DNA of 64,000 bases. Source: Bdellovibrionota bacterium (GTDB lineage Bacteria > Bdellovibrionota_C > UBA2361 > CAKMMH01). Where the stretch lies: NCBI GenBank assembly GCA_034180415.1, contig JAXFOK010000005.1, positions 65,093-129,092 on the forward strand. The letters are read 5' to 3'. Each line of letters starts with the position of its first letter. Position 1 is the first letter of the stretch. This document shows, piece after piece, positions 7,457 through 28,944 of this stretch. The position numbers and the translations under genes are program-made. Under the pieces are notes generated by a model. It did no database searches. It saw nothing but the letters and a program-made list of their open reading frames with translations, and had not been told where the DNA came from.

Positions 7457-8011
7457 TTGATATCACTGATGGTTAATTTAAAAAATATAGATAATGTAAT
7501 TATTAGAAAAGCCTCAATTCAAGATGTTCCTGAGGTTTGCAAAATTCAAGTAGATGGCTGGTGTAAGACTTATAAGGGAATTATCTTGGATGATTATTTA
7601 AGTAGTTTAAAAAGTAATATTGAAGAGAAAATTCAAGAAACAATTAAATGGTTTAATGAAGATAAAATTTCTAAAAGATTTGTCGTAGCTTTAGAAGATG
7701 AAATAATAGCTTGTTTTTCTTTAATTTTTCCAAGCAAAACTCCAAACAATATTGAAGCAGAAGTGCAGCTAAGTGATATGTATGTAAAAAATGAATATAC
7801 GGGACTGGGAATAGGAACAAAGATTTTTGAATTCATTAAAGATTTTCTTCTTAGTAAAGACAAAAATACCCTTTGTGCATGGTGCTTTAAAGATAATATA
7901 GATGCTTTTAATTTTTATAAGAAAAAAGGCGGTATCGTAAAAAAGGAAGTTCTAAAAACAATTTCTGATAATGAGTACACTGTGGTTTGTTTTTACTATG
8001 AGTTTTTGTAA
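7457..8011 (+). CDS. GNAT family N-acetyltransferase
   Basis: Motif A-like block TGLGIGTKIFEFIKDF and overall 184-aa GNAT architecture. Confidence 0.5.
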   Translation: MISLMVNLKNIDNVIIRKASIQDVPEVCKIQVDGWCKTYKGIILDDYLSSLKSNIEEKIQETIKWFNEDKISKRFVVALEDEIIACFSLIFPSKTPNNIEAEVQLSDMYVKNEYTGLGIGTKIFEFIKDFLLSKDKNTLCAWCFKDNIDAFNFYKKKGGIVKKEVLKTISDNEYTVVCFYYEFL

Positions 8012-8024
8012 AATGAGCATAATT

Positions 8025-10457
8025 ATGAAAAAATTATTATATACAAAATTTATATTTGTTTTTCTGGTAACTTATTTAGTTATATTTTCTGTAGTTTTTA
8101 AAAATGACTATTTAAGTAATATTGATACCACAGAAATTTTAACTGAATGGCAAGTTAACTTTTCACAAATAAAAATATTGTACTATATGTTTCAGTCTGC
8201 GGTATATAGTATTTGCTTGTTGTCATTTATTGTCTTTTTATACAATTATAGCAGCAAAATTTTTAAATTAAAATTATTGATGGAATCTTTAGGAATAATT
8301 AGTATAACCGTAATTTTATTTGGTTATATATATGGCAATTTTTCTTGGGATATTATAAATCTTCCGTTGTTCTTTTATGGAAGTGATGATGCTTATTTTT
8401 TATCTATCGCAAAAAATATTCTAGATGGCAATAGTTTTTGGTTTATAAAAAATTTAGATGCACCATTTGGTACAAGATTGTATGATTTTCCAAATACGTT
8501 GCCTTTTTTTTGCATTTGCGTTCGTGTTTTAGGATTGTTTACAAGTAATGTAATTTTTATAACTAACTTTTATTATTTCTTAACTTTTTTATTAGCCACA
8601 CTCTCGTTTTATATAGTTTTAAGGTTATTTAATATAAATTACTTTTTTTCTATCTTAGGAAGTATTGTATTTTCATTCTCTCAATATCACTTTTATAGAA
8701 ATATTGTACATTTAAATATTTCATCGTTTTTCTCTACGCCCATTGTTTTATACGTGTGCTATTGCATTGCATTTAACAATGATTTTAATAAGAGAGATAA
8801 TCAATTTACCGAAAAGCTAAGGACAATCACAAATATTATAACAATTAGTTTATTAATTACATTTTCTCATATTTATTATATCTATTTTGGATGCGTAGTA
8901 ATTGGTTTTAGCATGATTTGGGCGTTATTTAAAAAAAGATATGTAGCAATAGTAAAATCAATATCTATTCTTTTTTGTATAATAATGTTTGTATTTTGTG
9001 ATTTATTACCATCAATAATATATGGTATTGTCAATACTAATATGATTTCTCATCTTAGACTTCCTTATGATGCGTACGTATATAGTTTGCAATTAGTACA
9101 TTTATTTATGCCTTATCTCACCGAAGGTAAGCATGTTTTTTCGAATATCACTGATGCATATATTCGTTCAGGTATGAGTCAAAGTGAAGCTATGGTTAAT
9201 TACTTAGGAATTCTATCTTTAATTGGATTTGTAATTCTAATTTTGATTTTACTCGTTCCATCATTTAATAATTATATAAGGAAATATGAAGATGAAGGTA
9301 AAAAAGGAATACTAAGTTTTTTTTCGGCAAGCAATATGCTAATACTGTTATTAGGATTACAAAGTGGCATAGGAGTTATCGTAGCACTGTTAGGTTTTAC
9401 AAAAATTCGCGCATATAATAGGGTATCAATATATATATTAATGTATTCAATATTTGCTTTAATTTATATAATGGATATTCTCTATAAGAAATATAATAAA
9501 AAATTAAAAAATTTATATGCAGCTATTATAACAATTTTACTTATATGTTTTCATATTTATGAAACACATTTAACAAATTTTGTACAAAACCAAAATTATA
9601 ATAAAATTGCAATAAGTAATGTTAAGGATTATGCTTACAAGTTAGAAAATTTATACAAAAATGGAGCAAATATTTTACAACTTCCAATAGTAAGTTATCC
9701 AGAAAATTTAACAAATAATTCTTTAACTAATTGTAATTATCAAGTTTTGCCGTACATTTATACTAGTAATATAAAATACAGTTCTGGCGCACTAAATAAT
9801 ACAAAAGAGTATTTTGCACAAAAAGTATTATTTGATATAGATGATATAGAAAATATTTTATTAAATGCGAAAGAATACGGGTTTGATGGAATTAGCGTAA
9901 ATACCGATATGTATAATAATAATTCAATTATTGATAAATTTAATAATATCTTAGGTAACCCTAAAATTATCAGCGATTTAAAAAATATATATTTATACGA
10001 TATAAGAAATTATAAATCTAATAAAAACTTTGAATTGGACAATGTTAATTTTATAGATGATGAAAGATATATTGCTGGCGGTTTTAGTATATTAGAAATA
10101 GGTAAGGATTTTAATATAAGATGGGGAACATTAGAAGGTAAAAAAAAGTCTAAAGGTATTAATTCTTATATTTATTTTCTCCCTCCCCCAAACAAGCCAT
10201 ATAAAATCTTTTTTGATGCAAATTCAGAAATTGATAATACCCTAACAGTTTACGTAAACAATAATAAAATAGATACCTTTAATATCCATAGAGGCGAAAA
10301 TATCTTTGAAACGAAATTAATTAATTTCAATAATATACTAAAACCTTGCATTCTAAAATTAGAACATTCTGCTTCATTTTCTCCAAAAGATATTGATAGC
10401 ACAAGTTTAGATGGGCGGGAGTTGACATTAGCTTATAAACAGATTCGGCTAAAATAG
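8025..10457 (+). CDS. large polytopic membrane protein, paralog A (GT-C / YfhO-like candidate), multi-TM N-terminal domain plus about 300-aa C-terminal extracytoplasmic domain
   Basis: Probable start at ATG 8025 (MKKLLYTKF...) rather than the overlapping 7971. Conserved blocks shared with the two downstream paralogs: NFSWDIINLPLFFYGSDDAYFLSIAKN..GNSFWF..NLDAPFG, FTSNVIFITNFYYFLTF, INYFFSILGSIVFSFSQYHFYRN, C-terminal NCNYQVLPYIYTSNIKYSSGALNNTKEYF...YGFDGISVNTDMY. Confidence 0.6.
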   Translation: MKKLLYTKFIFVFLVTYLVIFSVVFKNDYLSNIDTTEILTEWQVNFSQIKILYYMFQSAVYSICLLSFIVFLYNYSSKIFKLKLLMESLGIISITVILFGYIYGNFSWDIINLPLFFYGSDDAYFLSIAKNILDGNSFWFIKNLDAPFGTRLYDFPNTLPFFCICVRVLGLFTSNVIFITNFYYFLTFLLATLSFYIVLRLFNINYFFSILGSIVFSFSQYHFYRNIVHLNISSFFSTPIVLYVCYCIAFNNDFNKRDNQFTEKLRTITNIITISLLITFSHIYYIYFGCVVIGFSMIWALFKKRYVAIVKSISILFCIIMFVFCDLLPSIIYGIVNTNMISHLRLPYDAYVYSLQLVHLFMPYLTEGKHVFSNITDAYIRSGMSQSEAMVNYLGILSLIGFVILILILLVPSFNNYIRKYEDEGKKGILSFFSASNMLILLLGLQSGIGVIVALLGFTKIRAYNRVSIYILMYSIFALIYIMDILYKKYNKKLKNLYAAIITILLICFHIYETHLTNFVQNQNYNKIAISNVKDYAYKLENLYKNGANILQLPIVSYPENLTNNSLTNCNYQVLPYIYTSNIKYSSGALNNTKEYFAQKVLFDIDDIENILLNAKEYGFDGISVNTDMYNNNSIIDKFNNILGNPKIISDLKNIYLYDIRNYKSNKNFELDNVNFIDDERYIAGGFSILEIGKDFNIRWGTLEGKKKSKGINSYIYFLPPPNKPYKIFFDANSEIDNTLTVYVNNNKIDTFNIHRGENIFETKLINFNNILKPCILKLEHSASFSPKDIDSTSLDGRELTLAYKQIRLK

Positions 10458-10974: not shown

Positions 10975-13752
10975 ATGAAGGGTAATATCAAATTTTTGGG
11001 AATTTTTTTTGTCGTTTATGTTTTTATTTTAAGTTTGATATTCAACAATAACTCATTATCTTACCTTAATACTACTAAAATTATAAAAACTTTAAATGTA
11101 ACTAATTTTAATAAATATAAGGTTAATAATAACAATAAAAACTTTGATTTAGAAATTCCCCTTAACCCCTATAATAACGGAACCTCTTATACTGTTTCTC
11201 TTAAATTAAATAACACTTTAAATAAACTATTCAAAACTCATATAAGCTTATATGATGTAAATACAAATAAATTAGCCTATAAGAAACTTTTTAATATAAA
11301 AAAAGGAAGAAGCGTAATTCTTGCTAAAATTTCATACGAAACAAAAGATACAAATTATAAACTAAAAATTGAATCTTCAAATGAAAATATTATAAAAAAT
11401 ATAAAAATTTCTCAAAATAACGTTACACCAAAAATTGTAAATGCTTCCTGCTATGTTTTTCAAGCTTTAATATATAGCATAATTTTATTTGCTTTTATTT
11501 TATTTACCTATTTTCATAGAAAACAAATATTTAATTTAAAAAATATAAGAGATTTTTTTCTAGTAAGCTTAATTACTCTAATACTACTAGGATACATCTA
11601 TAATAACTTTAACTGGGATTTTGTTAATGTACCTATTTATTTTCTAGGCTTAAATGATGCCCACTGCTTAGCTGTACTAAAAAACGCTATGCAAGGAAAT
11701 AGCTATTGGCATATTCCAAACTTAGGAGCACCTTTTGGAACAAATGTTTATTATTATCCAATCCTAATGGGGTTTTATTACTATTTTGGAAGGCTTTTGG
11801 GAATTTTTACGAATAATGTCATTTTTGTAAATAATTTATATTTAATATTAACTTTTATACTTTCTTCTTTTGGGGTTTTTATAATTGCAAGAATTTTTAA
11901 AATTAATTATTTTCTTGCCATTCTCGGAGGCTTGCTTTTTTCAATTTCTCAGAATCATTTAATAAGAAACGGTCTACACGTCCAAATTTCATCATATTTT
12001 GTAAACATAATCGTTTTTTATTACTGTTTTAAAATTGTTAAAGATGAAAAATTCAATAATAAATTAATCTTACTAAATGATAAATTAAAATTATACATAG
12101 GTTTAATCTTAGGAGCTTTCTTACTTGGGTCAGTAGAAATTTATTATGCTTATTTTGGATTGATATTTTTAACTCTAAGTGTGTTTATATCATTATTTAA
12201 TAAAAGATATACCGCAAGCATTAGAGGATTATTATTTATTTTTTTAATATTTATATGTTTAGCAAATAGCTTACTTCCTGCTATCATAAACGCAATTTTA
12301 AATGGAGCTACTAAATCTGCTGTAAGAAGTCCATCTGAAGCTTTTTATTATGGATTAATGCTAGTTCATTTGTTTAAACCGTATAATGTTACTAGCTCTC
12401 ATATTTTTTCTGCTATTTCTAACTCTTATGATAAAGTAATGCCATTTAAAGGAGAAGTGCTTTATAATTATCTTGGAATATTAGGAGGAATAGGATTTTT
12501 ATTATTACTATTATTTTTACTTGTTGAACCCTTTAAAAATATAATACAAAAATATGAAAAGCAAGAAAATAGAGGAACATTAAGTCTTATTTCGATACTA
12601 AATATTTTTGCACTTTTAGTCGGATTTCAAAGTGGTATAGGGATAATAATATCTTTAATGGGGCTTACGCAATTTAGAGCATATAATCGTATTAGTGTTT
12701 ATATCTTACTGTTTTCAGTATTTACACTAATTTATTTACTCGATATCTTCTTTAAGAGAGCCTTTAAAAATAAAACAAACGTATATGTAGCTATCTTTTC
12801 ATTGTTTTTATTATATATTCATATTGTAGATATTAATCCTTCAAATTTAGTTCAAGATTTTAATACAAATAAAGAAAAAGTTAATAATGTAAAAGAGTAT
12901 GCTAAAAACTTAGATGATTACTATAAAGATGGCGCAAAGATTTTACAATTACCTGTTTTATTATTTGTTGATAATTATGTAAGAGATGATTTTACAAACT
13001 GTAATTATCAAGTTTGGCCATATCTTTTTACAAAAAATATTAGGTATAGTTTTGGCGCATTTAAAAATACAAAAGAGTTTTTTATGCAAAATGCACTATT
13101 TGATGATAATAATATTGAAAATGTTGTGTCAAATGCTAAGAATTATGGTTTTAATGGAATAAGCGTAAATACAGATATATATGATAATAGTGATGTCGTA
13201 GCTAGTTTAAAAAACCTTTTAGGTGAACCTAAAATTGTAAGCAAGCTTGGAAACATATTATTGTTTGATTTAAAGGATTATAAATCAAATAAGGAAGTGC
13301 ATTTTAAAAATATTAATTTAATAGAAAACGATAGTAATATTATTAGTGGATTTAGTGGATTAGAAAGAGGAAAAGATTTTTATATAAGATGGGCGGTTTT
13401 AGATGAAAATTTTAACTTAAAGAAAAATAATGGCATAAATTCTTATATTTATTATATTCCTCCAAAAGGTAAGTCATATAAGATTGTTTTAAATGTTCAC
13501 TCTGAAATTGATAATACATTAAAGGTATACGTAAATAATAATAAAGTAGGGGATTTTAAAATTGAAAAAGGGGATAGTATTTTTGAGACCAAAACAATAT
13601 TAAAAGGGAGCGGGGCTAAAAAATTAGAACCTAGTGTGTTAATGTTAGAACATAGTAAGTCTTTTAGACCAAGCAGTTTTGATAATAAATCAATAGATAA
13701 AAGAATATTAACATTAGCATATAAGGAAATCTTGGTTAAAATTTTAGAGTAA
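10975..13752 (+). CDS. large polytopic membrane protein, paralog B (925 aa), with an extra N-terminal extracytoplasmic module
   Basis: Shares all conserved blocks with paralog A (NFNWDFVNVPIYFLGLNDAHCLAVLKN..GNSYWH..NLGAPFG; NCNYQVWPYLFTKNIRYSFGAFKNTKEFF; YGFNGISVNTDIYD). Also carries an N-terminal about 150-aa region (LDLEIPLNPYNNGTSYTVSLKLNN...) absent from A. SD sequence AAGGA 11 nt upstream. Confidence 0.6.
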   Translation: MKGNIKFLGIFFVVYVFILSLIFNNNSLSYLNTTKIIKTLNVTNFNKYKVNNNNKNFDLEIPLNPYNNGTSYTVSLKLNNTLNKLFKTHISLYDVNTNKLAYKKLFNIKKGRSVILAKISYETKDTNYKLKIESSNENIIKNIKISQNNVTPKIVNASCYVFQALIYSIILFAFILFTYFHRKQIFNLKNIRDFFLVSLITLILLGYIYNNFNWDFVNVPIYFLGLNDAHCLAVLKNAMQGNSYWHIPNLGAPFGTNVYYYPILMGFYYYFGRLLGIFTNNVIFVNNLYLILTFILSSFGVFIIARIFKINYFLAILGGLLFSISQNHLIRNGLHVQISSYFVNIIVFYYCFKIVKDEKFNNKLILLNDKLKLYIGLILGAFLLGSVEIYYAYFGLIFLTLSVFISLFNKRYTASIRGLLFIFLIFICLANSLLPAIINAILNGATKSAVRSPSEAFYYGLMLVHLFKPYNVTSSHIFSAISNSYDKVMPFKGEVLYNYLGILGGIGFLLLLLFLLVEPFKNIIQKYEKQENRGTLSLISILNIFALLVGFQSGIGIIISLMGLTQFRAYNRISVYILLFSVFTLIYLLDIFFKRAFKNKTNVYVAIFSLFLLYIHIVDINPSNLVQDFNTNKEKVNNVKEYAKNLDDYYKDGAKILQLPVLLFVDNYVRDDFTNCNYQVWPYLFTKNIRYSFGAFKNTKEFFMQNALFDDNNIENVVSNAKNYGFNGISVNTDIYDNSDVVASLKNLLGEPKIVSKLGNILLFDLKDYKSNKEVHFKNINLIENDSNIISGFSGLERGKDFYIRWAVLDENFNLKKNNGINSYIYYIPPKGKSYKIVLNVHSEIDNTLKVYVNNNKVGDFKIEKGDSIFETKTILKGSGAKKLEPSVLMLEHSKSFRPSSFDNKSIDKRILTLAYKEILVKILE

Positions 13753-13866: not shown

Positions 13867-16659
13867 ATGAAAAAACTTTCTTATTTATTTTTATTTATTT
13901 TTATTTTGTCTTTTAGCTTAATATTAAGTCTAGTTTTTTATAGAAACCCATTATCAAATATTACAAGGACTAAAATTGTAAAAAGTTTTGGTAATACTAA
14001 TTTAAAAGATATTCAAAGAAATAGTGATAATGATAAATTAGACTTAGAGATTCCCCTTAATCCTAATAATAATGGTAATTCTTTTACCGCATCAATTAAT
14101 CTTAATAATTCATTTGATAAGGAAGGCGATATATTAATAAGCTTATATGAAAGAGATACAAATAAACTAATATATGATAAGCATTTTAATATTATAAAAG
14201 GGGAAAGTGTAATATTTCCTAAAATATTTTATGAAAATAAAGATATAAGTTATATTTTAAAAATTAAAGCTGAAAATAAAGAAATTTTAAAAAATATTGT
14301 AATTTTTCAAAATGAAATAACTTTAAAATTCATAAATTCAATCTGCTATATTTTTCAAGCATTACTATATACGCTAATATTTTGTTCTTTAATTGCATTT
14401 TTATATTGTTATAAAGCAAGAATATTTAATATTAAAAATATTAGTATCTTTATTATAACTAGTACAATAGTTTTAACATTATTTGGATACCTATATAATA
14501 ATTTTAATTGGGACATAGTTAATGTTCCTTTATATTTAGTCGGTATTGATGATTTTCATTTCTTATCCGTTGCGAAAAATGCCGTTGATCGAAATAGTTT
14601 TTGGTATATGAATGATATGGGGGCACCATTTGGAGTTGCAAGGTATAACTTCCCAATGCTTATGGCATTTTACTATGATTTTTGTTATTTCTTTGGATTT
14701 TTTACTAATAATGCAATTTTTATCACTAATTTATATTATATATTAACTTTTATTTTGGCTGTGTTTGGTTTTGTTTTAATAGCAAAAGAATTAAAAATTA
14801 ATTATTATCTTGCAGTTCTTGGTGGAATTATATTTTCATTTTCTCAATATCATATATTTAGAAGTACACATCATCTTACAGCATCTTCTTATTTTGTCGT
14901 AACCTTAGTTTTATATTTTTGTTTACATATTGTTTTAAAAGATAAATTTAATAATTGGAATTTAAAAATTGCAGATAAAATTAAGATATATTCTAGCTTA
15001 ATACTTAGTAGCTTTTTGATTGGGTCTGTAGATATATTTTATGCGTATTTTGGATGTGCATTTATCGCGTTATGTTTACTGATGGCATTATTTAGTAAGA
15101 GATATATTGCAAGTCTTAGAGGTTTATTTTTCATAATAATGATTTTACTAGTTCTTGTAAACAATTTATATCCATCAATATTAAATAGTATAATTCATGG
15201 GACGACCAAAACATCTATGCGAGATCCCTATGAGGTTTTTTTCTATGGATTAAGTTTAGTACACCTATTTATGCCAAGAACTTTTGGTGAATTTCACATA
15301 TTTTCGTGGTTAACACAGTCTTATAATAATTCAAGATTTTTTAGAAGCGAGGCAACAGCTAGTTATCTTGGTATAATAGGTATTATAGGATTTTTAGTTC
15401 TCTTATCTGTTTTACTTATAGATAGTTTTAGAAAAATTCTTCAAAAGTATGAAGAAAATTCTAATAAGGGAATGTTAAAATTCTTATCTAGGTTAAATAT
15501 TTTTGCATTACTTCTTGGATTACAAAGCGCAATAGGTGTGTTTGTCGCATTAGTTGGTTTTACTAAGGTTAGAACTTATAATCGTATTTCAGTCTATATA
15601 TTATTATTTTCGATACTTACAACCATTTATTTGTTTGATATTTTCTTTAAAAAATTTTTTAAAAATTTTAAACCAGTCTCTAATCAGATTTGTCTTATAA
15701 TTTTATGTATTGGATTATTGTTTATTCACATAAAAGATACTTATTTAGTAAAATTTCCTCAAAATTTTGACGCTAATAATAAGAAAGTTAGCATAGTTAA
15801 AAAATATGCCACAAATATTAATAAACATTATAAAAATGGTGCCATGATTTTACAATTGCCTATTCTTACATATCCAGAAAATTATGTATCACAAAAGCTA
15901 ACTAATTGTAACTTTCAAGTGTTTCCATATCTTTTTACAAAAAATATAAAATGGAGTCATGGAGCATTAAATCACACCAATGAGTCTTTTTTCCAGAAAA
16001 GTTTATTTGGCTCTGATGATATTGAGAATGATATTATCAATGCAAAGATTCAAGGTTTTGATGGAATTAGTATAAATACTGATATTTATGATTATACTGA
16101 CATTTTAGCGTCTGTTAAAAAAATTTTAGGAAAACCACTTTTTGTAAGTAAGAATAATAAATTATATTTTTTTGATTTAACTAATTATAGAATTGATAAG
16201 CTAGCTAATGTTAATAACATAAATTTTATCAAGGATGAATTATATTTAGGTGATGGTTGGAGTGATTTATGGCCACCAAGAGATGTTCAAAGTAGATGGG
16301 CATTTGTAGAGAGTAATAAAACGAAAGCAAAAAATAAAAATTTAGGGGGAAGCACATATGTTAGGTTTATTTCTTATGCTAAATCACCATATAAAATTGT
16401 AATTAAAGCTTCATCACCTATAAAAAATCATTTAAAAGTTTATCTAAATAATTCTATTATCGGAGATTTTTCAGTTAATAAAGGTGATAACGTATTTGAA
16501 ACAAAATATATTTATGAAGATTCTTCAAAGAATCTTTATGAACCTAACTTAATTAAGTTAGAACATTCATTATCGTTTAAACCGAGTGAGATTTATAAAA
16601 AAAGTCGTGATCATAGGTCGTTGACTTTAAAATATAATGAGATTAGCTTGAGAGATTAA
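13867..16659 (+). CDS. large polytopic membrane protein, paralog C (930 aa), same architecture as B
   Basis: LDLEIPLNPNNNGNSFTASINLNN; NFNWDIVNVPLYLVGIDDFHFLSVAKN..RNSFWY..DMGAPFG; NCNFQVFPYLFTKNIKWSHGALNHTNESFF; QGFDGISINTDIYD. Confidence 0.6.
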   Translation: MKKLSYLFLFIFILSFSLILSLVFYRNPLSNITRTKIVKSFGNTNLKDIQRNSDNDKLDLEIPLNPNNNGNSFTASINLNNSFDKEGDILISLYERDTNKLIYDKHFNIIKGESVIFPKIFYENKDISYILKIKAENKEILKNIVIFQNEITLKFINSICYIFQALLYTLIFCSLIAFLYCYKARIFNIKNISIFIITSTIVLTLFGYLYNNFNWDIVNVPLYLVGIDDFHFLSVAKNAVDRNSFWYMNDMGAPFGVARYNFPMLMAFYYDFCYFFGFFTNNAIFITNLYYILTFILAVFGFVLIAKELKINYYLAVLGGIIFSFSQYHIFRSTHHLTASSYFVVTLVLYFCLHIVLKDKFNNWNLKIADKIKIYSSLILSSFLIGSVDIFYAYFGCAFIALCLLMALFSKRYIASLRGLFFIIMILLVLVNNLYPSILNSIIHGTTKTSMRDPYEVFFYGLSLVHLFMPRTFGEFHIFSWLTQSYNNSRFFRSEATASYLGIIGIIGFLVLLSVLLIDSFRKILQKYEENSNKGMLKFLSRLNIFALLLGLQSAIGVFVALVGFTKVRTYNRISVYILLFSILTTIYLFDIFFKKFFKNFKPVSNQICLIILCIGLLFIHIKDTYLVKFPQNFDANNKKVSIVKKYATNINKHYKNGAMILQLPILTYPENYVSQKLTNCNFQVFPYLFTKNIKWSHGALNHTNESFFQKSLFGSDDIENDIINAKIQGFDGISINTDIYDYTDILASVKKILGKPLFVSKNNKLYFFDLTNYRIDKLANVNNINFIKDELYLGDGWSDLWPPRDVQSRWAFVESNKTKAKNKNLGGSTYVRFISYAKSPYKIVIKASSPIKNHLKVYLNNSIIGDFSVNKGDNVFETKYIYEDSSKNLYEPNLIKLEHSLSFKPSEIYKKSRDHRSLTLKYNEISLRD

Positions 16660-21925: not shown

Positions 21926-23845
21926 ATGGGAAAAATAATTGGTATAGACTTAGGAACAACAAATTCATGTGTTGCTGTAATGGAAGGTAGCTCTGCTGTT
22001 GTAATAGCTAATGCAGAAGGCGCAAGGACTACCCCATCAGTTGTTGCTGTTACTGATTCTAAGGAAAGATTAGTAGGGCAGATTGCAAAAAGACAGGCAG
22101 TTACAAATCCCAAGAATACGATTTTTGCTGTTAAAAGATTAATTGGTAGAAAATATGATTCAGAGGAAGTTAATAGGGCTAAAAAAGTTTTACCTTATGA
22201 GCTTGTTTCTGCAAAAAATGGAGATGCTTGGGTTAAACTTGCAGGAGAGGATAAAAGCCCTCAAGAGATTTCTGCTATGATTTTAGGAAAGATGAAGCAA
22301 GCTGCTGAAGATTACTTAGGAGAAACAGTAACAGATGCTGTAATTACAGTTCCTGCTTACTTTAACGATGCTCAAAGACAAGCAACAAAAGACGCTGGTA
22401 AAATTGCCGGGCTTAATGTTCAAAGAATTATAAACGAGCCTACAGCTGCAGCTCTTTCTTATGGTGTGGAAAAATCAGGTGGTGAAAAGACAATTGCAGT
22501 ATTTGACCTTGGTGGTGGTACGTTTGATATTTCAATCCTTGAGCTTGCAGAAGGTGTGTTCGAAGTAAAATCAACAAATGGTGATACATACTTAGGTGGT
22601 GAAGATTTTGACTTAAGGATTGTTGATTATCTTGCAGATGAATTTAAGAAAGATAATGGTATCGATTTAAGAAATGACACCATGGCACTTCAAAGATTAA
22701 AAGAAGCTGCTGAGAAGGCTAAACATGAGCTTTCATCTTCTATGGAAACAGATGTTAACTTGCCATTTATTACAGCTGATGCATCTGGTCCAAAACATTT
22801 AAATATTAAATTAAGTCGTTCAAAACTTGAACAGTTATGTGCTGACTTATTAGATAGATTAGATGGACCTTGCCAAATAGCTTTAAAAGATGCTGGTATT
22901 TCAACTTCTGATATTCATGATGTTGTACTTGTAGGTGGTATGACTCGTATGCCTGCAGTACAAGAAAGAGTTAAGAGAATATTTGGAAAAGAAGCTTCTA
23001 AAAATGTTAACCCTGACGAAGCTGTAGCAATTGGTGCTGCAATTCAAGGTGGTGTTTTACAAGGTGACGTTAAAGATGTTCTTTTACTTGATGTAACTCC
23101 ATTAAGTTTAGGTATCGAAACATATGGTGGTGTGTTTACAAAGCTTATTGATAAAAACACAACAATTCCTGTAGAAAAATCACAGGTTTTCTCAACTGCT
23201 GCAGATAACCAGCCTGCCGTTTCGATTCATGTTCTTCAAGGTGAAAGAGAGATGGCAAGTGATAATAAAACACTTGGACGTTTTGAGCTCGTTGGTATTC
23301 CACCTGCTCCTCGTGGTATTCCTCAAATTAGAGTTACATTTAAAATTGATAGTAACGGTATTGTTGCTGTATCTGCAAAAGATGAGGGAACAGGAAAAGA
23401 ACAATCAATTACAATTACTGCTTCATCTGGTTTAAGTGATGCGGAAATTGAAAAAATGGTAAAAGATGCTGAGCTTCATGCAGAGGAAGATAAGAATAGA
23501 AAAGAAGCAGTAGAGGCTAAGAATAACCTAGATAACTTAGTTTATACTACTGAAAAGTCAATTAAAGATTTAGATGGTAAACTTCCAGCTAGTGATAAAG
23601 AAAATGTTGAGAAAGAAATTGCCAATGCTAAGAAAGTTCTTGAAACTTCTAGTAATGACAAGAAAGCACTTACTGATGCATATGAATCTTTAATGAAAGT
23701 AAGTCATAAACTTTCAGAGGAAATGTACAAAAATGCTTCTCAGCAAAATCAACAAGCAGCAAGCGGCGCTAGCGATGCAAGCTCAAATGATTCAAAAAAA
23801 TCAGATGATGATGTAGTTGATGCTGACTATGAAGAAGTTAAGTAA
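21926..23845 (+). CDS. dnaK: molecular chaperone DnaK (Hsp70)
   Basis: [39 protein letters not shown] and a C-terminal [13 protein letters not shown] tail. Confidence 0.97.
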
Positions 23846-23921: not shown

Positions 23922-25100
23922 ATGAGTGCACTTTTTGTTTATAATAAGAAAAATAGGAAAAAGATTTTGGAAAAAAGAGATTATTACGAGGTATTAGGTG
24001 TTTCAAAAAATGCAAGTAAAGCTGATATTAAGAAAGCGTATAGAGTTCTAGCATTAAAGTATCACCCAGATAAAAACAAAGGAGATAAAGAATCAGAGGA
24101 TAAGTTTAAAGAGGCGACGGAAGCATATCAAGTGCTAAGTGATGATGATGCTCGTCAAAAATATGACCAGTTTGGACACGCAGCGTTTGACCAAAATGGT
24201 GGTATGGGTGGAGGCTTTGGAGGATTTGGCGATTTCTCTGGCTTTGAGGATATTTTTGGTGATATTTTTAGTTCGTTCTTTGGCGGTTCAATGCAAGGAG
24301 GGGGGCGTTCAAGAGGACAAGTTGGTGCAGACCTATCTTATGATTTAACTGTTGAATTTGAAGAATCTGTATTTGGTACAGAAAAGGAAATAAAATTAAA
24401 AAGGCGTGTAAAATGTGATGATTGTGATGGTACAGGAGCTCAAAAAGGAACGACAATAGATAAATGTCCACACTGTAAAGGAACAGGCCAAATTAGAATG
24501 CAACAAGGATTTTTTAGCATTAGTAGAACATGCCCAGATTGTCAAGGAAGTGGTCAATTTATTAAAAATAAGTGTCAAACATGTCGAGGAACAGGAAGAA
24601 AATTATCAGAGGCTTCTCTTAAAGTTAAAGTTCCTGCTGGTATTGCTGATGGTCAAAGACTTAAATTAAGAGGTGAAGGAGAATCAGGAATTAATGGTGG
24701 TGAGTCAGGTGACCTTTATGTAAATATCAGAGTTAAGGAACACAAAGTATTTAAACGAGAAGGATATGAGCTTTTTTATGAACTTCCTGTAAATTACACC
24801 ACTCTTGTTCTTGGTGGAAAAGTTGAAATGTTAACTCTTGAAGGAAAAGAGGAATTGGATATTCCGGCAGGTACTCCAGCAGAAAAAGTTTTTAAATTAC
24901 GAAATCGAGGCGTTCAAATTTTAGGCACATCAAGAAGGGGAGACCTTCATATAAAAGTTGTCGTACATGTTCCTACATCAATTTCTGATGATGAAAGAAA
25001 GGCCCTTGAACTTTTAAAACAAGCTGAAAAAAAAGCCCCTAAAGTTACTGAAAAGCAAGGAGAGGGGTTGTTTGATAAGTTTAAGAAAATGTTTGTCTAA
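23922..25100 (+). CDS. dnaJ: co-chaperone DnaJ (Hsp40); the true start is probably TTG at 23967 ([12 protein letters not shown]) with AGGAAAAAG as the SD sequence
   Basis: J-domain ([32 protein letters not shown]), a G/F-rich region, four CxxCxGxG zinc-finger repeats and a C-terminal substrate-binding domain. Confidence 0.93.
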
Positions 25101-25235
25101 TAAAAATGGACGATGCATCGAAAAATCCCGCGTTATCTTACAAAACGCTCCTTTCGCTGTAGAAGGACTACACCTTCAAGTCGCGTTTTATAAGATGCCT
25201 TGTCTTTTTCGCGCCTCGTCCATTTTTATAAAATT
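25100..25235. repeat. about 135-bp element bounded by a 27-bp imperfect inverted repeat (ATAAAAATGGACGAnGCnnCGAAAAA)
   Basis: Left arm taATAAAAATGGACGATGCATCGAAAAAtc (25101-25130). Reverse complement of 25205-25235 is ATAAAAATGGACGAGGCGCGAAAAAg. A third partial copy, GCGATGCATCC, lies at 25236-25250. GC-rich relative to the surrounding native DNA. Confidence 0.4.
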
Positions 25236-25408
25236 AGCGATGCATCCAAATATACTTCGTTATTTGAGAGAGATGACTTTCCTCGCTGCATTACCAGTAC
25301 AGCTCCGGAGATGTCCTCTCAAATGCCTAATTAACGCCTCATCAATCATCATTTAAGGTTGATACGTTTTTTCTTTTAGTTATTATCATCGCAAGGGAAG
25401 AAGCGAAA

Positions 25409-26129
25409 TATGACATTTTTTAGTATGAAAATGCGTGCGAGTCGTACAGATGGCGAAACGACTTTTCATGTATCTGGTGCCGAAAAGATACTTTCTGAAC
25501 CAGAGCTTGTCGTGAATGCAAGGGCATTGATTGAACGGGCACTTCATCATGCAAAGGGAGATGCTGATTATATTTAGTTGAAAATAGAAAAAGCTACACC
25601 GGAAAGTATAGAATATATTGATGCACTACCTGTTCATACTATTGAAGTGGATGATGTAGCATAAGGGCACGAGGCGATTTTGTCACTCTTAATGAAGCTT
25701 GGATTGAAAAATGGTGCTGACATTATGAAAAAATTTCATGAAACTTATGCAATGCGTGGTGCAATGTTATTAGATGTTGACTCTTTGGATCGTTTAGAGC
25801 CAGACCACGCTCGTGGAATACGTGCCACTTATATGGATTCAGAGCACTCTCTATTACGTCCTGTTGATGATGGTAAAAATCATTTTCAATAAGCCATTGT
25901 CCTTGCTAGCAAGGTGTCAAATACACCACACATTATAGCTGAAATCTGTATTTTCGATGATCCTGACTACGTGACAGGTTATGTCGCTTCAAAGCAGACA
26001 GGTTATGTGCGTATAACGAAGCTTAAGGAAATAGGTAATCCAGACGATGGGCGTATTTTCCTTTATCGCGGTCAAAGAGAAGAGGTAAAAATACTATCAA
26101 ATATCTTGAGAAGTAAATTGTCTTAGTAA
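25409..26129 (+). pseudogene. bioW: 6-carboxyhexanoate-CoA ligase (pimeloyl-CoA synthetase) BioW, full length in one frame but interrupted by three in-frame stop codons
   Basis: Single-frame translation MTFFSMKMRASRTDGETTFHVSGAEKIL...KGDADYI*LKIEK...VDDVA*GHEAIL...GKNHFQ*AIVLASKVSNTPHIIAEICIFDDPDYVTGYVASKQTGYVRITKLKEIGNPDDGRIFLY... aligns end to end with Bacillus-type BioW (YSVRMRAS...HISGGERL; AVVAELCWSDDPDYITGYVAGKKMGYQRITAMKEYG..GCRVFF). Internal stops: TAG ending at 25576, TAA at 25661 and TAA at 25893. The region is GC-richer than the genome background. Confidence 0.7.
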
Positions 26130-26132
26130 AAA

Positions 26133-26586
26133 ACGCACCAGATATACAAATTTCAGAAACTGCATACAGATCCGTGGCAGGTTCTTGCTAACAATTTAGA
26201 GCAACTAAAAAATGCAGGACTTTACCGAAGTATTACGACTATCGACTCGCCTCAAAGTGTTCATGTAACTATAGGTGGCAAGAATTTCTTAATGCTTGCT
26301 TCTAATTCCTACCTTGGATTGACGGATGAACCTCGTGTCTGCCATGCTGCATCTGATGCGACGTTACGATTTCGGTGCAGGGGCTGGTGGGTCACGGTTC
26401 ACTACAGAGAGTTTGCAACTTTATGACGAGCTTGAAAAGGCTCTCTCAGATTTTAAAGGAACTGAAGTAACACTACTTTTTAACACGGGTTATATGGCAA
26501 ATGTTGGTATATTGTCAGCCCTTAAATTAAATCGTAAATACCCTGTAATTTCTCGAATCAAATGCACATTTGTGCAAAAATTTTGA
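26133..26586 (+). pseudogene. bioF: 8-amino-7-oxononanoate synthase BioF, N-terminal about 150 aa only, with one frameshift and a premature stop
   Basis: Continues in the bioW frame: ...WQVLANNLEQLKNAGLYRSITTIDSPQSVHVTIGGKNFLMLASNSYLGLTDEPRV. After a frameshift near 26338 it reads HLMRRYDFGAGAGGSRFTTESLQLYDELEKALSDFKGTEVTLLFNTGYMANVGILSAL, which matches the BioF blocks NYLGL...FGTGSSGSRLTTGN...LEKKIA.FK.TEAALLFSSGYLANVGVLSSL. The frame ends at 26586 and native AT-rich sequence resumes. Confidence 0.65.
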
Positions 26587-26684
26587 GTATCATCACACTA
26601 ACGGGTTTACTAAAATTTTGGATTAATCAGTGTTTCCTTAGAGCTTTACAATGCTCTTGATACCTAATTAGTTTTTGATATTTG

Positions 26685-26990
26685 TTAATCTTCATTATCA
26701 AAATAAGGCCTAATTATTTTATATGGTTCTTTGCCGTGGATGCCAGGCCTGTAATAGTATATGTATCCTTTAGGTTCGTGCTTTTCAAGTGCAAGCTTCT
26801 TTTTTTCTTTTTCTGCTTCTGCTTTGGCTTTTTTACTTCTTTCAACTCTTGCATGTTTTGTATCTTTAATAAATCCTATAAACCAAAATACACCACTAAT
26901 TAATGAAAGGATAATTATAATTAAAAATATTAAACTTCCTTCACCTTCACCTTTTTGATTTCTATGACATTTACTAAAAAATCTAAGCAT
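26685..26990 (-). CDS. small membrane protein, hypothetical (one TM helix plus a Lys/Glu-rich tail)
   Basis: ORF last in a same-strand trio (SurA-like, UvrA-like, then this one); hydrophobic segment LIFLIIIILSLISGVFWFIGFI. Confidence 0.3.
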   Translation of the reverse strand: MLRFFSKCHRNQKGEGEGSLIFLIIIILSLISGVFWFIGFIKDTKHARVERSKKAKAEAEKEKKKLALEKHEPKGYIYYYRPGIHGKEPYKIIRPYFDNED

Positions 26991-27042: not shown

Positions 27043-28944
27043 TTAAATTGCTTCTAATATTATCGTATTATTTTCTATAGAACTTTCAAGTATATCTATA
27101 AATCGTAATTTTTGAGAATTACTTAAGAATGAAAAGGCATTTTTAATGATATAAAGATTTGAATTTTGTAACTCATTGAAATTGCTAAATATGTTAATTG
27201 TATTAATAATATTGCTAGTCAAATTATCCGTTTGGAAATTAAGCCTTAATTCCCCAAGTTTCATTTTGTTTAGTAGATCAATTTGATAGTATATCTTTTT
27301 AAAATTCTTAAAAAATTCTGATGCCTCAGTTATATTAAAGTTGTAAACTTCTTTTAAAGTTACATTTTTAAATTTTAAATTTAAAATAGTGTCATTAAAT
27401 AAATTTCCATTACATTTAGGACATATCTTATATATACCTTCTATTTCCTTAATCTTTCCTTTACCTTGGCAAATTTTGCACAAATACTTATTGCTTGTTT
27501 TTAAGAAAAAATCTTTTTTTTGAAGTCCTATAACCTTAGCATCTGTAGTTTGTAAAAAAATGTCATTAATCTTACTAAAGATATCTAAAAGATTCATTAA
27601 TGTTGTACTTTTAAAAAATAATGGATAAATAATATTAACCTTTTTATATAGATTACTTTCTTTTGCTAAATTAATAATATTTTCTAAATTTTTGTAAGAA
27701 ATAATATTAACTTTATTTTTAGTTATTGTTGTTTGCAGTTTAACACTATTTCTTTGCTTAATTATTAAATTGCTATCTGTATGCTTAGTTAAGTTATAAA
27801 CCTTATCAAAATTAAGTGAAAATATATCATTATTATTTTCAAATATTATTATAGATATATTCTTTAATTCTTTTAGGATTTGTTCTAAATATTTTCTCTC
27901 TATAAATGAAAGGGGATTTTGAATTATTAGGATATCATTTTTATTAATTTTATTTTTTATATCTATATAATTTAAAATATAACTTAATGTTAAATTGTTT
28001 ATTTGAGATAAAAAATTTAAAGATTCTAAACCAAAATTAATAAAATTTGCTAACAAATTTTTTATTCGTATATTCTCAATTTTTGAAATTAAGATATTAA
28101 ATGGATCGTTAAGTAAAGAAGATAAACTTATATTGTTATAAAAAATATTACTTAAAGAATTTAAATCTGAATTTTTATTGAAATTATATTTTGAAGTAGG
28201 AAAATCAAATTCGTATGAACAATTTTTGCAAATAAATTTATCATTAATGTTATAAATTTTAAAATTATTATTTTTAGTAGAGAATATAAAGAAATCATTA
28301 GTTTGGTTTTTATAATCGTTTAAAATGCTATTAAATTGATTTTTAAATGTAGTAAAATTTGATAGTGATATTTTATTTTTTACGATGTAAAAATTATTTA
28401 TTTCCTTAGTGTTTATATCATCAATGTCAATTATGCTGTCATTATAGATTATATTAAATATGCCTTTTTTAATAAGCTCTTTAACGTTAATGTTGTCAGT
28501 TATGCATTTATTTTCACCAATAGCTATAATATCACCTTGATAATTATCAAAAATATTTTTTGTTAAACTTTGAGTACTATTTTTTTCTAATATATGACCA
28601 CATTTGGGACATTTGTAAGATAATGCGGGGTCATTTTTTAATATTTCATTTAATACATTAAATTTGTTTAAAATATTAAAAGAGTCATTTTGATAATCTA
28701 AACAATAAATGTTGCTATAAAAATTATTAATTTGGCTATTAATACTTAATGGGGGAATGATTCCAAAATTTATAAGTTTATAATTTTCATTTTTAATTAA
28801 AGTATAGTTTTTTAAGTTCTTATATAAAAAAAACGTATCATTTAACTTTGATGAAAAAAGTAAAGAATGCTTATGGTATTCGAAAGAAAACTTATCTATT
28901 GAAAAATTTAATGTATCGTTATTCTTTAATCCTTTATTAACCAT
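27043..28944 (-). CDS. UvrA-derived protein with conserved zinc-finger/helix region but degenerate ATPase motifs (ATPase-dead UvrA relic), 633 aa
   Basis: C-terminal CKICQGKGKIKEIEGIYKICPKCNGNLFNDTILNLKFKNVTLKEVYNFNITEASEFFKN aligns with the UvrA zinc-finger 3 region [63 protein letters not shown]. Walker A position reads YPLFFKSTTLMN (expected GVSGSGKSTLIN). The signature position reads LNFQTDNLTSN (expected LSGGEAQR). The Walker B position reads LYIIKNAF (expected LYILDEPT). The ORF stops at the H-loop position. Additional CxxC pairs are CPKCGH and CKNC. Confidence 0.6.
   Translation of the reverse strand: MVNKGLKNNDTLNFSIDKFSFEYHKHSLLFSSKLNDTFFLYKNLKNYTLIKNENYKLINFGIIPPLSINSQINNFYSNIYCLDYQNDSFNILNKFNVLNEILKNDPALSYKCPKCGHILEKNSTQSLTKNIFDNYQGDIIAIGENKCITDNINVKELIKKGIFNIIYNDSIIDIDDINTKEINNFYIVKNKISLSNFTTFKNQFNSILNDYKNQTNDFFIFSTKNNNFKIYNINDKFICKNCSYEFDFPTSKYNFNKNSDLNSLSNIFYNNISLSSLLNDPFNILISKIENIRIKNLLANFINFGLESLNFLSQINNLTLSYILNYIDIKNKINKNDILIIQNPLSFIERKYLEQILKELKNISIIIFENNNDIFSLNFDKVYNLTKHTDSNLIIKQRNSVKLQTTITKNKVNIISYKNLENIINLAKESNLYKKVNIIYPLFFKSTTLMNLLDIFSKINDIFLQTTDAKVIGLQKKDFFLKTSNKYLCKICQGKGKIKEIEGIYKICPKCNGNLFNDTILNLKFKNVTLKEVYNFNITEASEFFKNFKKIYYQIDLLNKMKLGELRLNFQTDNLTSNIINTINIFSNFNELQNSNLYIIKNAFSFLSNSQKLRFIDILESSIENNTIILEAI

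Follow-up and report, generated by a model that had tools for sequence, protein, structure and literature searches.

A decayed bioWF fusion gene of Selenomonadaceae type beside dnaJ in an AT-rich Bdellovibrionota bacterium

Introduction

BioW converts pimelate to pimeloyl-CoA, and BioF joins this product with alanine to give 8-amino-7-oxononanoate (KAPA), a pair of steps that is useful only together with bioA, bioD and bioB. Natural fusions of the two enzymes, BioWF, are known from Desulfosporosinus orientis and Corynebacterium amycolatum and are active (PMC9544090). Here we describe the remains of such a fused gene, which we call the fossil, on the forward strand of a 64,000-nucleotide stretch of Bdellovibrionota DNA (assembly GCA_034180415.1, contig JAXFOK010000005.1, positions 65,093 to 129,092; hereafter the window, whose numbering is used throughout). 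The fossil lies downstream of dnaJ, and its closest relatives are bioWF genes of Selenomonadaceae. It resembles the D. orientis and C. amycolatum proteins in the order of its parts, with an N-terminal BioW, a short linker and a BioF that depends on pyridoxal phosphate (PLP) (PMC9544090), but unlike those active enzymes it is dead: its frame has four nonsense codons and is shifted three times, and ~268 codons are gone from the C-terminal end, the PLP-lysine among them.

A Desulfosporosinus BioWF is only 51% identical to the repaired fossil (locus L046 in our collection). The stand-alone BioW of the Bacillus-type bioWAFDB operon belongs to the same family (PF03744) and has the same predicted chemistry, but it is not fused to BioF and, as represented by plasmid-borne Bacillus and Alicyclobacillus BioW, is 33-41% identical to the fossil. 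In contrast to that operon, no bioA, bioD or bioB adjoins the fossil or the nearest donor-clade locus. The fossil falls within the class of BioWF fusions already known, as a pseudogene acquired across phyla, and represents no new mechanism or protein family. An earlier sequence-only reading of the window had seen here a GC-rich, Bacillus-type bioW with three in-frame stops, followed by the start of bioF; parts of that description hold and parts do not, as set out below.

Results

The BioW-like frame begins with the ATG at 25410. Joined across the stops and one frameshift, its translation matches the Pfam profile PF03744 from end to end (profile positions 1-239 of 239; 242.3 bits against a curated cut-off of 25 bits; E 6.5e-72), and together with an alignment to fused BioWF proteins (alignment A1) this places the BioW (6-carboxyhexanoate-CoA ligase) domain at 25410..26145. 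From 26146 to 26524 there follow a linker and the N-terminal ~117 codons of a BioF (8-amino-7-oxononanoate synthase) domain, which align with the fused proteins through ...GYMANVGILSAL and match the first quarter only of PF00155 (class I/II aminotransferases and alpha-oxoamine synthases; profile positions 2-96 of 361, E 4e-7). The profile match covers the full length of BioW and the reading frame is interrupted, so that the fossil belongs to the BioW family as a pseudogene member only; the BioF fragment falls short of a complete fold, the region of the Schiff-base lysine being gone. The stretch 25410-26524 is a genuine BioW-BioF pseudogene. Gene callers have split it into 'BioW' proteins of 55-160 amino acids in contigs L001, L002, L006 and L007 (proteins P0001, P0002 and P0026), and fragments called BioW in this way could inflate metabolic reconstructions of these metagenome-assembled genomes (MAGs).

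Seven repairs (T to C at 25575, 25662 and 26114; T to G at 25890; one A added to an A run; one T removed at 26151 and another at 26370) yield a single open reading frame (ORF) of 371 codons that aligns end to end with fused BioW-BioF proteins in alignment A1. As reconstructed, bioW and bioF were one fused gene in the inferred ancestor, and it is in that ancestor only that both domains and the linker share one frame.

Four nonsense codons, three homopolymer frameshifts and one 3' deletion make up the damage. The first nonsense codon, TAG at 25575..25577, stands for an ancestral CAG (Gln); its T is found in the window and in contigs L001-L005 and L008 (with L006 as the window), its C in L007, L009 and L010, and the proteins P0001 and P0002 read ...DYIQLKIE across the CAG form of the site. 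The second, TAA at 25662..25664, derives from CAA (Gln), which is the form in L001, L003, L004, L007, L009 and L010. The third, TAA at 25890..25892, was a GAA, still present in L001, L003, L004 and L008, and falls in a column where Glu is invariant in the BioW part of alignment A1 (E161). The fourth, TAA at 26114..26116, where homologues have Gln or Thr (LEKQ.VLV), is invariant in all strains that cover it. So is the -1 frameshift in an A5 run near the BioW C-terminus (26087..26091), where a single-nucleotide deletion puts the last ~19 BioW codons out of frame; homology there switches from frame 1 (...GQREEVK) to frame 3 (NTIKYLEK, a stop, then IVLVKNAP), and one added A restores it. An extra T in a T3 run of the BioW-BioF linker (26151..26153) is confined to the window and L006, with TT in L001, L002, L003 and L007-L010, and its removal brings the BioW and BioF frames together. 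A second extra T, in a T3 run within BioF (26370..26372), is present in the window, L006, L001, L003 and L008 and not in L002, L007, L009 and L010, which read ...LRFGAGAGG in frame. The 3' truncation lies at 26524..26525, where the window has ...GCCCTT and then AAATTAAATCG, against ...GCCCTC and then GGCACAAAAGAC in the Schwartzia gene L014 described below. Homology to bioWF breaks off after codon 371 of ~639, so that ~268 codons, including the PLP-binding lysine of BioF, are deleted; the GTLSK motif that holds this lysine is residues 486-490 of the 639-residue L014 protein, past the last codon retained in the window. Beyond the truncation, in 26515-26700, no homology to donor loci was detected. 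Nonsense substitutions (three C to T and one G to T) are accompanied by deletions and by slippage within A and T runs; this mechanism of decay is ordinary, and typical of an AT-biased, probably reducing genome.

Set against these results, the sequence-only reading was right that this is a pseudogene of the BioW/BioF pimelate-to-KAPA route. All three of its stops are real, although their coordinates were off by 1-3 nucleotides and the fourth TAA was overlooked. BioW is not complete in a single frame, as it had proposed, given the slip in the A5 run. The one frameshift that it put near 26338 in BioF exists, at 26370-26372, and has a companion in the linker at 26151-26153. BioF homology extends not to about 26590 but to 26524, which leaves about 117 codons and a linker and not some 150 codons, and the view that decay had proceeded by nonsense mutations and not by indels gives way before three homopolymer frameshifts and a large 3' deletion.

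Ten other metagenome contigs, independently assembled and from several samples, bear the fossil at the same site. The exact DnaJ protein occurs on 14 metagenome contigs, and BioW fragments follow it in all six of those listed that run past dnaJ; searches from BioW fragments with less damage led to further fossil-bearing contigs. Over the fossil, L006 and the window are 100% identical, and the other contigs are 96.6-97.9% identical to the window there, as against 99.0-99.9% over dnaK, dnaJ and two downstream genes. The A-run frameshift, the TAA at 26114 and the 3' truncation are common to every strain covering them, the truncation junction aligning in L001-L003 and L007-L010 and the spacing from bioW to the following 101-residue ORF being the same in L007, L009 and L010. 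Also seen are an extra T near 25950 (L001, L003, L004, L007, L009 and L010), the absence of G 26487 (L001 and L003), the absence of a base at 26468 (L007) and a gap of ~600 bp (L005).

Single-nucleotide polymorphisms among these strains fall at former codon positions one, two and three in the ratio 20:17:13 in the fossil, against 1:2:18 in dnaK and 1:1:15 in dnaJ. Because they are spread over the codon positions, unlike those of dnaK and dnaJ, the fossil is evolving without constraint, and it combines raised divergence with a lost codon-position bias relative to its flanking genes, as a neutral pseudogene does.

The alleles at two of the nonsense sites, 25662 and 25890, are found in each of the four possible combinations (TT in the window, CG in L001, TG in L008 and CT in L009), which indicates that strains have recombined or that mutation has recurred; L008, a contig of low coverage, is to be read with caution. 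In L001 (7918-9837), a lone TTA to TGA change at dnaK codon 308, corresponding to window position 22848, splits the gene call. It is not found in the near-identical L003 and L004, which makes a rare variant or a fault of assembly probable; in its light, variants seen in a single contig, or like the extra T at 26151 in the window and L006 only, are to be taken cautiously.

Singletons of this kind, together with the restriction of the T at 26151 to the window and its identical copy, are what could be said for the fossil being an artefact, whether of faulty sequencing or assembly or of a chimera in which Selenomonadaceae DNA was joined to a Bdellovibrionota contig. We find such an origin scarcely credible, as the same junctions and shared lesions recur in ten other contigs, the GC content at third codon positions (GC3) is 0.29, unlike that of any nearby Selenomonadaceae gene (0.68-0.80), and the closest donor-clade gene is only 71% identical in DNA. 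The stops, which the sequence-only reading had taken to be genuine, are not sequencing errors, since contigs from several samples, each assembled independently, contain them too.

Another possibility is that the gene still functions through recoding, by stop readthrough or reassignment combined with programmed frameshifts. Nothing specific speaks for this beyond the stops being TAG and TAA only, and we give it next to no weight: the long native genes (an RpoC fragment of 1216 amino acids, EF-G and DnaK) are open under the standard code, native ORFs (n=48) end in TAA 37 times, in TAG nine times and in TGA twice, the catalytic lysine region of BioF is deleted, the lesions vary by strain, and the polymorphisms are even over codon positions.

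The best genome matches to the repaired protein come from Schwartzia sp. RGIG4989 (L014), a MAG from roe-deer rumen, and a Selenomonadales MAG (L015), at 81% and 78% amino acid identity over all 371 retained codons (residues 1-371). Selenomonadaceae/Selenomonadales and Schwartzia MAGs follow at 64-66%, several of them from rumen samples, with Megamonas, Selenomonas, Anaerovibrio and Pectinatus lower still. A neighbour-joining tree of 33 sequences (200 bootstraps) places the fossil as sister to L014 and L015 within a nine-member Selenomonadaceae clade, with 100% support at both nodes. The L014 gene is a single ORF of 656 amino acids from an upstream TTG, or 639 from the aligned ATG, with BioW at residues 21-257 and Aminotran_1_2 at 309-648; it is a stand-alone gene flanked by lepA-hemN and a GTPase gene, and no bioADB adjoins it. 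Whereas the L014 and L015 genes are intact (639 amino acids), with a GC content of 61-63% and a GC3 of 0.73-0.80, the fossil is truncated and disrupted, with values of 40% and 0.29. Nothing in the genome, metagenome or protein collections lies between 81% and 100% identity to the repaired protein; a scan of metagenome contigs with it gave nothing above 64% identity and no intact AT-rich relative, and a plasmid search with the protein gave only distant, non-fused Bacillus-type bioW at 33-41% and no transfer vehicle.

Homology to the donor clade extends to the DNA level, over 25381-26523 with L014 (71%) and 25352-26524 with L015 (69%). On this basis, and given that it is not in the syntenic sister species described below, the predicted acquired segment is 25352..26524, comprising a donor promoter and the bioWF fossil cut at its 3' end, with a left junction at about 25352-25358. 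A promoter scan finds the promoter remnant at 25359..25386 (TTGATA, 16 nucleotides, TATTAT; 10 of 12 matches), and it is followed by the ribosome-binding-site-like AAGGGAAG and the ATG at 25410. Upstream of bioWF, L014 and L015 have TTGACA...TATCAT...CGCAAGGGGGAA...ATG, to which the window sequence aligns base by base, so that promoter, ribosome-binding site and start codon are all conserved between these loci and the fossil. Because the DNA is homologous to the donor clade already 5' of the start codon, the gene arrived with its predicted promoter. The clade is that of rumen-type, Schwartzia-like Selenomonadaceae, and we infer that transfer ran from it to the Bdellovibrionota host.

That host is, by its core proteins, a native Bdellovibrionota. 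MAGs labelled Bdellovibrionota bacterium contain proteins identical to the window's DnaK, EF-G and S12, a 377-residue member of the cluster of its DnaJ is labelled Bdellovibrionota, and the nearest DnaJ relatives (60-78% identity) are Bdellovibrionota where named, with Oligoflexia and Deltaproteobacteria labels farther down the list. The insertion site lies between dnaJ and a small conserved membrane-protein gene. In a sister species (L174, from GCA_050952645.1, and L175), whose dnaJ is 74% identical at the DNA level, the flanks are preserved, with Band_7, NfeD, grpE, dnaK, dnaJ, the small membrane-protein gene, a ~600-residue ORF, a SurA-like gene and rpsL. A tblastn search for bioWF in these syntenic loci found nothing, and the interval from dnaJ to the small gene in L174 (region 11135-11950) holds an unrelated ORF of 187 amino acids without a Pfam match on record. 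More distant relatives carry other genes at the dnaJ site and no bioWF. The surroundings of dnaJ vary within the lineage; for example, a MethyltransfD12 gene block of more distant relatives stands between dnaK and dnaJ (L176, 6695-9850).

An ancestral, vertically inherited Bdellovibrionota biotin operon, since silenced and truncated, was one of two origins that the sequence-only reading had entertained, and the stable position of the fossil beside the core dnaK-dnaJ locus in all strains would fit it. It is nevertheless very improbable, as the fossil nests within Selenomonadaceae at 100% bootstrap, is missing both in the syntenic sister species and in relatives farther off, is a GC3 outlier by about four standard deviations and retains a donor-type promoter, and as the bioWF of its nearest relative belongs to no operon. 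The segment is marked as horizontally acquired by its place within a foreign clade, by the lack of a counterpart in syntenic relatives and by its anomalous GC3. Stop-codon reassignment, assembly chimera and vertical inheritance were all three considered and rejected.

The composition of the fossil bears on when it was acquired. Its GC content is 39.6%, against a window mean of 29.1%, which agrees with the GC-richer stretch noted in the sequence-only reading, but that total is not above the most conserved native genes (36-40%) and only GC3 is clearly anomalous, at 0.29 against 0.179 +/- 0.027 (maximum 0.237) for the 48 window ORFs of at least 120 amino acids that served as the native set. All eight donor-clade genes have a GC3 of 0.68-0.80. 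Between the fossil and L014 the nonsynonymous divergence (dN) is 0.106 and the synonymous divergence (dS) is saturated, with third positions differing at 233 of 371 codons, 201 of them from GC in Schwartzia to AT in the fossil; for comparison, L014 and L015 differ by a dN of 0.049 and a dS of 0.54. Since the foreign synonymous composition has mostly been lost while the protein sequence was kept, the simplest reading suggests a long, functional residence under purifying selection in the AT-biased genome before inactivation, and acquisition was probably not recent. Inactivation itself would be comparatively recent, because the first and second codon positions still have a coding-like GC content (0.55 and 0.36) and strains differ by only 2-3% within the fossil.

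The alternative is a recent transfer from an unsampled, AT-rich, Schwartzia-like bacterium, of a gene that was never or only briefly functional in the host and decayed at once. The fossil's GC3 is indeed still above the host's (0.18), and bioWF genes of low GC3 do exist elsewhere in Selenomonadaceae (L028, L031 and L032, 0.29-0.32). Those genes, however, are 57-58% identical to the fossil and lie outside its clade (L028 being the only one placed in the tree), all eight genes of its own clade are GC-rich at third positions, the collections hold nothing in the interval from 81% to 100% identity, and every strain has the gene at the one site, where it is fixed, with old lesions in common. We regard a recent transfer as improbable.

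As regards origin, then, the sequence-only reading was borne out in assigning the gene to Firmicutes (Bacillota), with a composition distinct from that of the host, and in holding that GC content had not fully equilibrated. Its proposal that the stitched translation would reveal the donor succeeded insofar as similarity to BioW and BioF is significant, but the clade recovered is Selenomonadaceae and not the Bacillus type, and what it took for adjacent bioW and bioF genes is a single bioWF fusion (81% to the Schwartzia MAG against 33-41%). Its suggestion of a relatively recent acquisition sits poorly with so many changed third positions at so low a dN, and its other suggestion, an ancestral operon, with the lack of any trace in the syntenic sister species and with the stand-alone donor-clade gene.

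Several further observations concern the flanks. Directly 3' of the dnaJ stop lies an imperfect hairpin of 130 nucleotides (25100-25229), with an RNA minimum free energy of -45.2 kcal/mol and z = -7.8 relative to shuffled sequences, followed at 25230-25345 by a weaker related unit (a 34-nucleotide direct repeat at 76% identity, spacing 127). Three stem pairs are disrupted by uncompensated substitutions in L007. The spacer (25095-25360) has no match by blastn or tblastx to any donor-clade locus, nor by blastn to plasmids, and the hairpin spacer has no Rfam match and no second copy in the window, and is not in the sister species; it may be a terminator, or what is left of a palindromic mobile element. 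On the other side, the 160 bp from the truncation to the stop of the 101-residue ORF (26525-26684) have 29% GC and a strain conservation of 97.5-100%, above that of the fossil, with no homology detected to sister species or donor loci; native DNA and the far end of the insert are both possible. Rfam gave no match at gathering thresholds in the whole window, nor at E<=1 within positions 25000-26800, and a tRNA scan of the window was likewise negative. Elsewhere the window contains four long ORFs (633-930 amino acids; 7971-10457, 10975-13752, 13867-16659 and 27043-28944) of 19-24% GC without a Pfam match, the 633-residue one being conserved in the sister species.

Discussion

We consider it highly probable that a bioWF gene was transferred from Selenomonadaceae, was long kept under selection, and was then inactivated and left to decay neutrally. 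A stand-alone fused gene with its own promoter would have moved from a rumen-type, Schwartzia-like bacterium into an ancestor of this ~29% GC Bdellovibrionota species, landing between dnaJ and the small conserved membrane-protein gene. Transfer of a single gene is plausible because bioWF is solitary in the donor-clade genome closest to the fossil, and there is no sign that the 3' deletion took a bioADB cluster with it. Purifying selection probably acted for a long time, during which synonymous sites would largely have turned to A or T. Inactivation would have come before the sampled strains diverged, through the ~268-codon 3' deletion, the -1 slip in the A run and one nonsense codon, any of which may have been the first. 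Neutral drift since then would have given the strains their different nonsense codons and homopolymer frameshifts and, in one case, the ~600-bp deletion.

Some points weigh against this history. The sister species could also have lost the gene and had it replaced, as the unrelated 187-residue ORF occupies the site, and the 256-bp spacer between dnaJ and the insert is as GC-rich as the fossil (40.6%) and not homologous to donor DNA. Time in the host is judged from composition, and the gene could have been AT-rich already on a more recent arrival from a low-GC member of the donor clade that has escaped sampling. The tree was built by neighbour joining on 33 sequences and not by maximum likelihood, and the word 'rumen' appears in the record titles of the donor clade only, not in those of the host strains. 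Past usefulness of the gene presupposes, moreover, that the host once had bioA, bioD and bioB; within the 64-kb window there is no bioA, bioD, bioB, bioY, birA or acc, and an extension past its right end showed no biotin genes. The organism may now take up biotin, as the sequence-only reading suggested, or a later precursor, or it may have a different bioF route.

It is tempting to speculate further that a predatory or host-dependent, genome-reducing Bdellovibrionota took the pimelate-to-KAPA module with its promoter across phyla, from neighbouring or prey Selenomonadaceae (diderm Firmicutes) in the rumen, relied on it for long, and dropped it on a shift to scavenged biotin or precursors. This is a rather doubtful possibility, and if it were true, the lesion combinations of co-existing strains, with their signs of recombination, would form a natural time series of gene death.

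The favoured history of transfer, long use and neutral decay makes this a clear and unusually well-resolved, but ordinary, case of gene gain and loss, and not a surprising one: a donor clade is identified, both ends of the insertion are placed to a few bases, and the lesions that first disabled the gene are separable from later, strain-specific ones. Gene gain, codon amelioration and loss can thereby be traced in one uncultured, very AT-rich Bdellovibrionota lineage. They hint that the lineage once made KAPA from scavenged pimelate and no longer does so by this route, which bears on its nutritional dependence.

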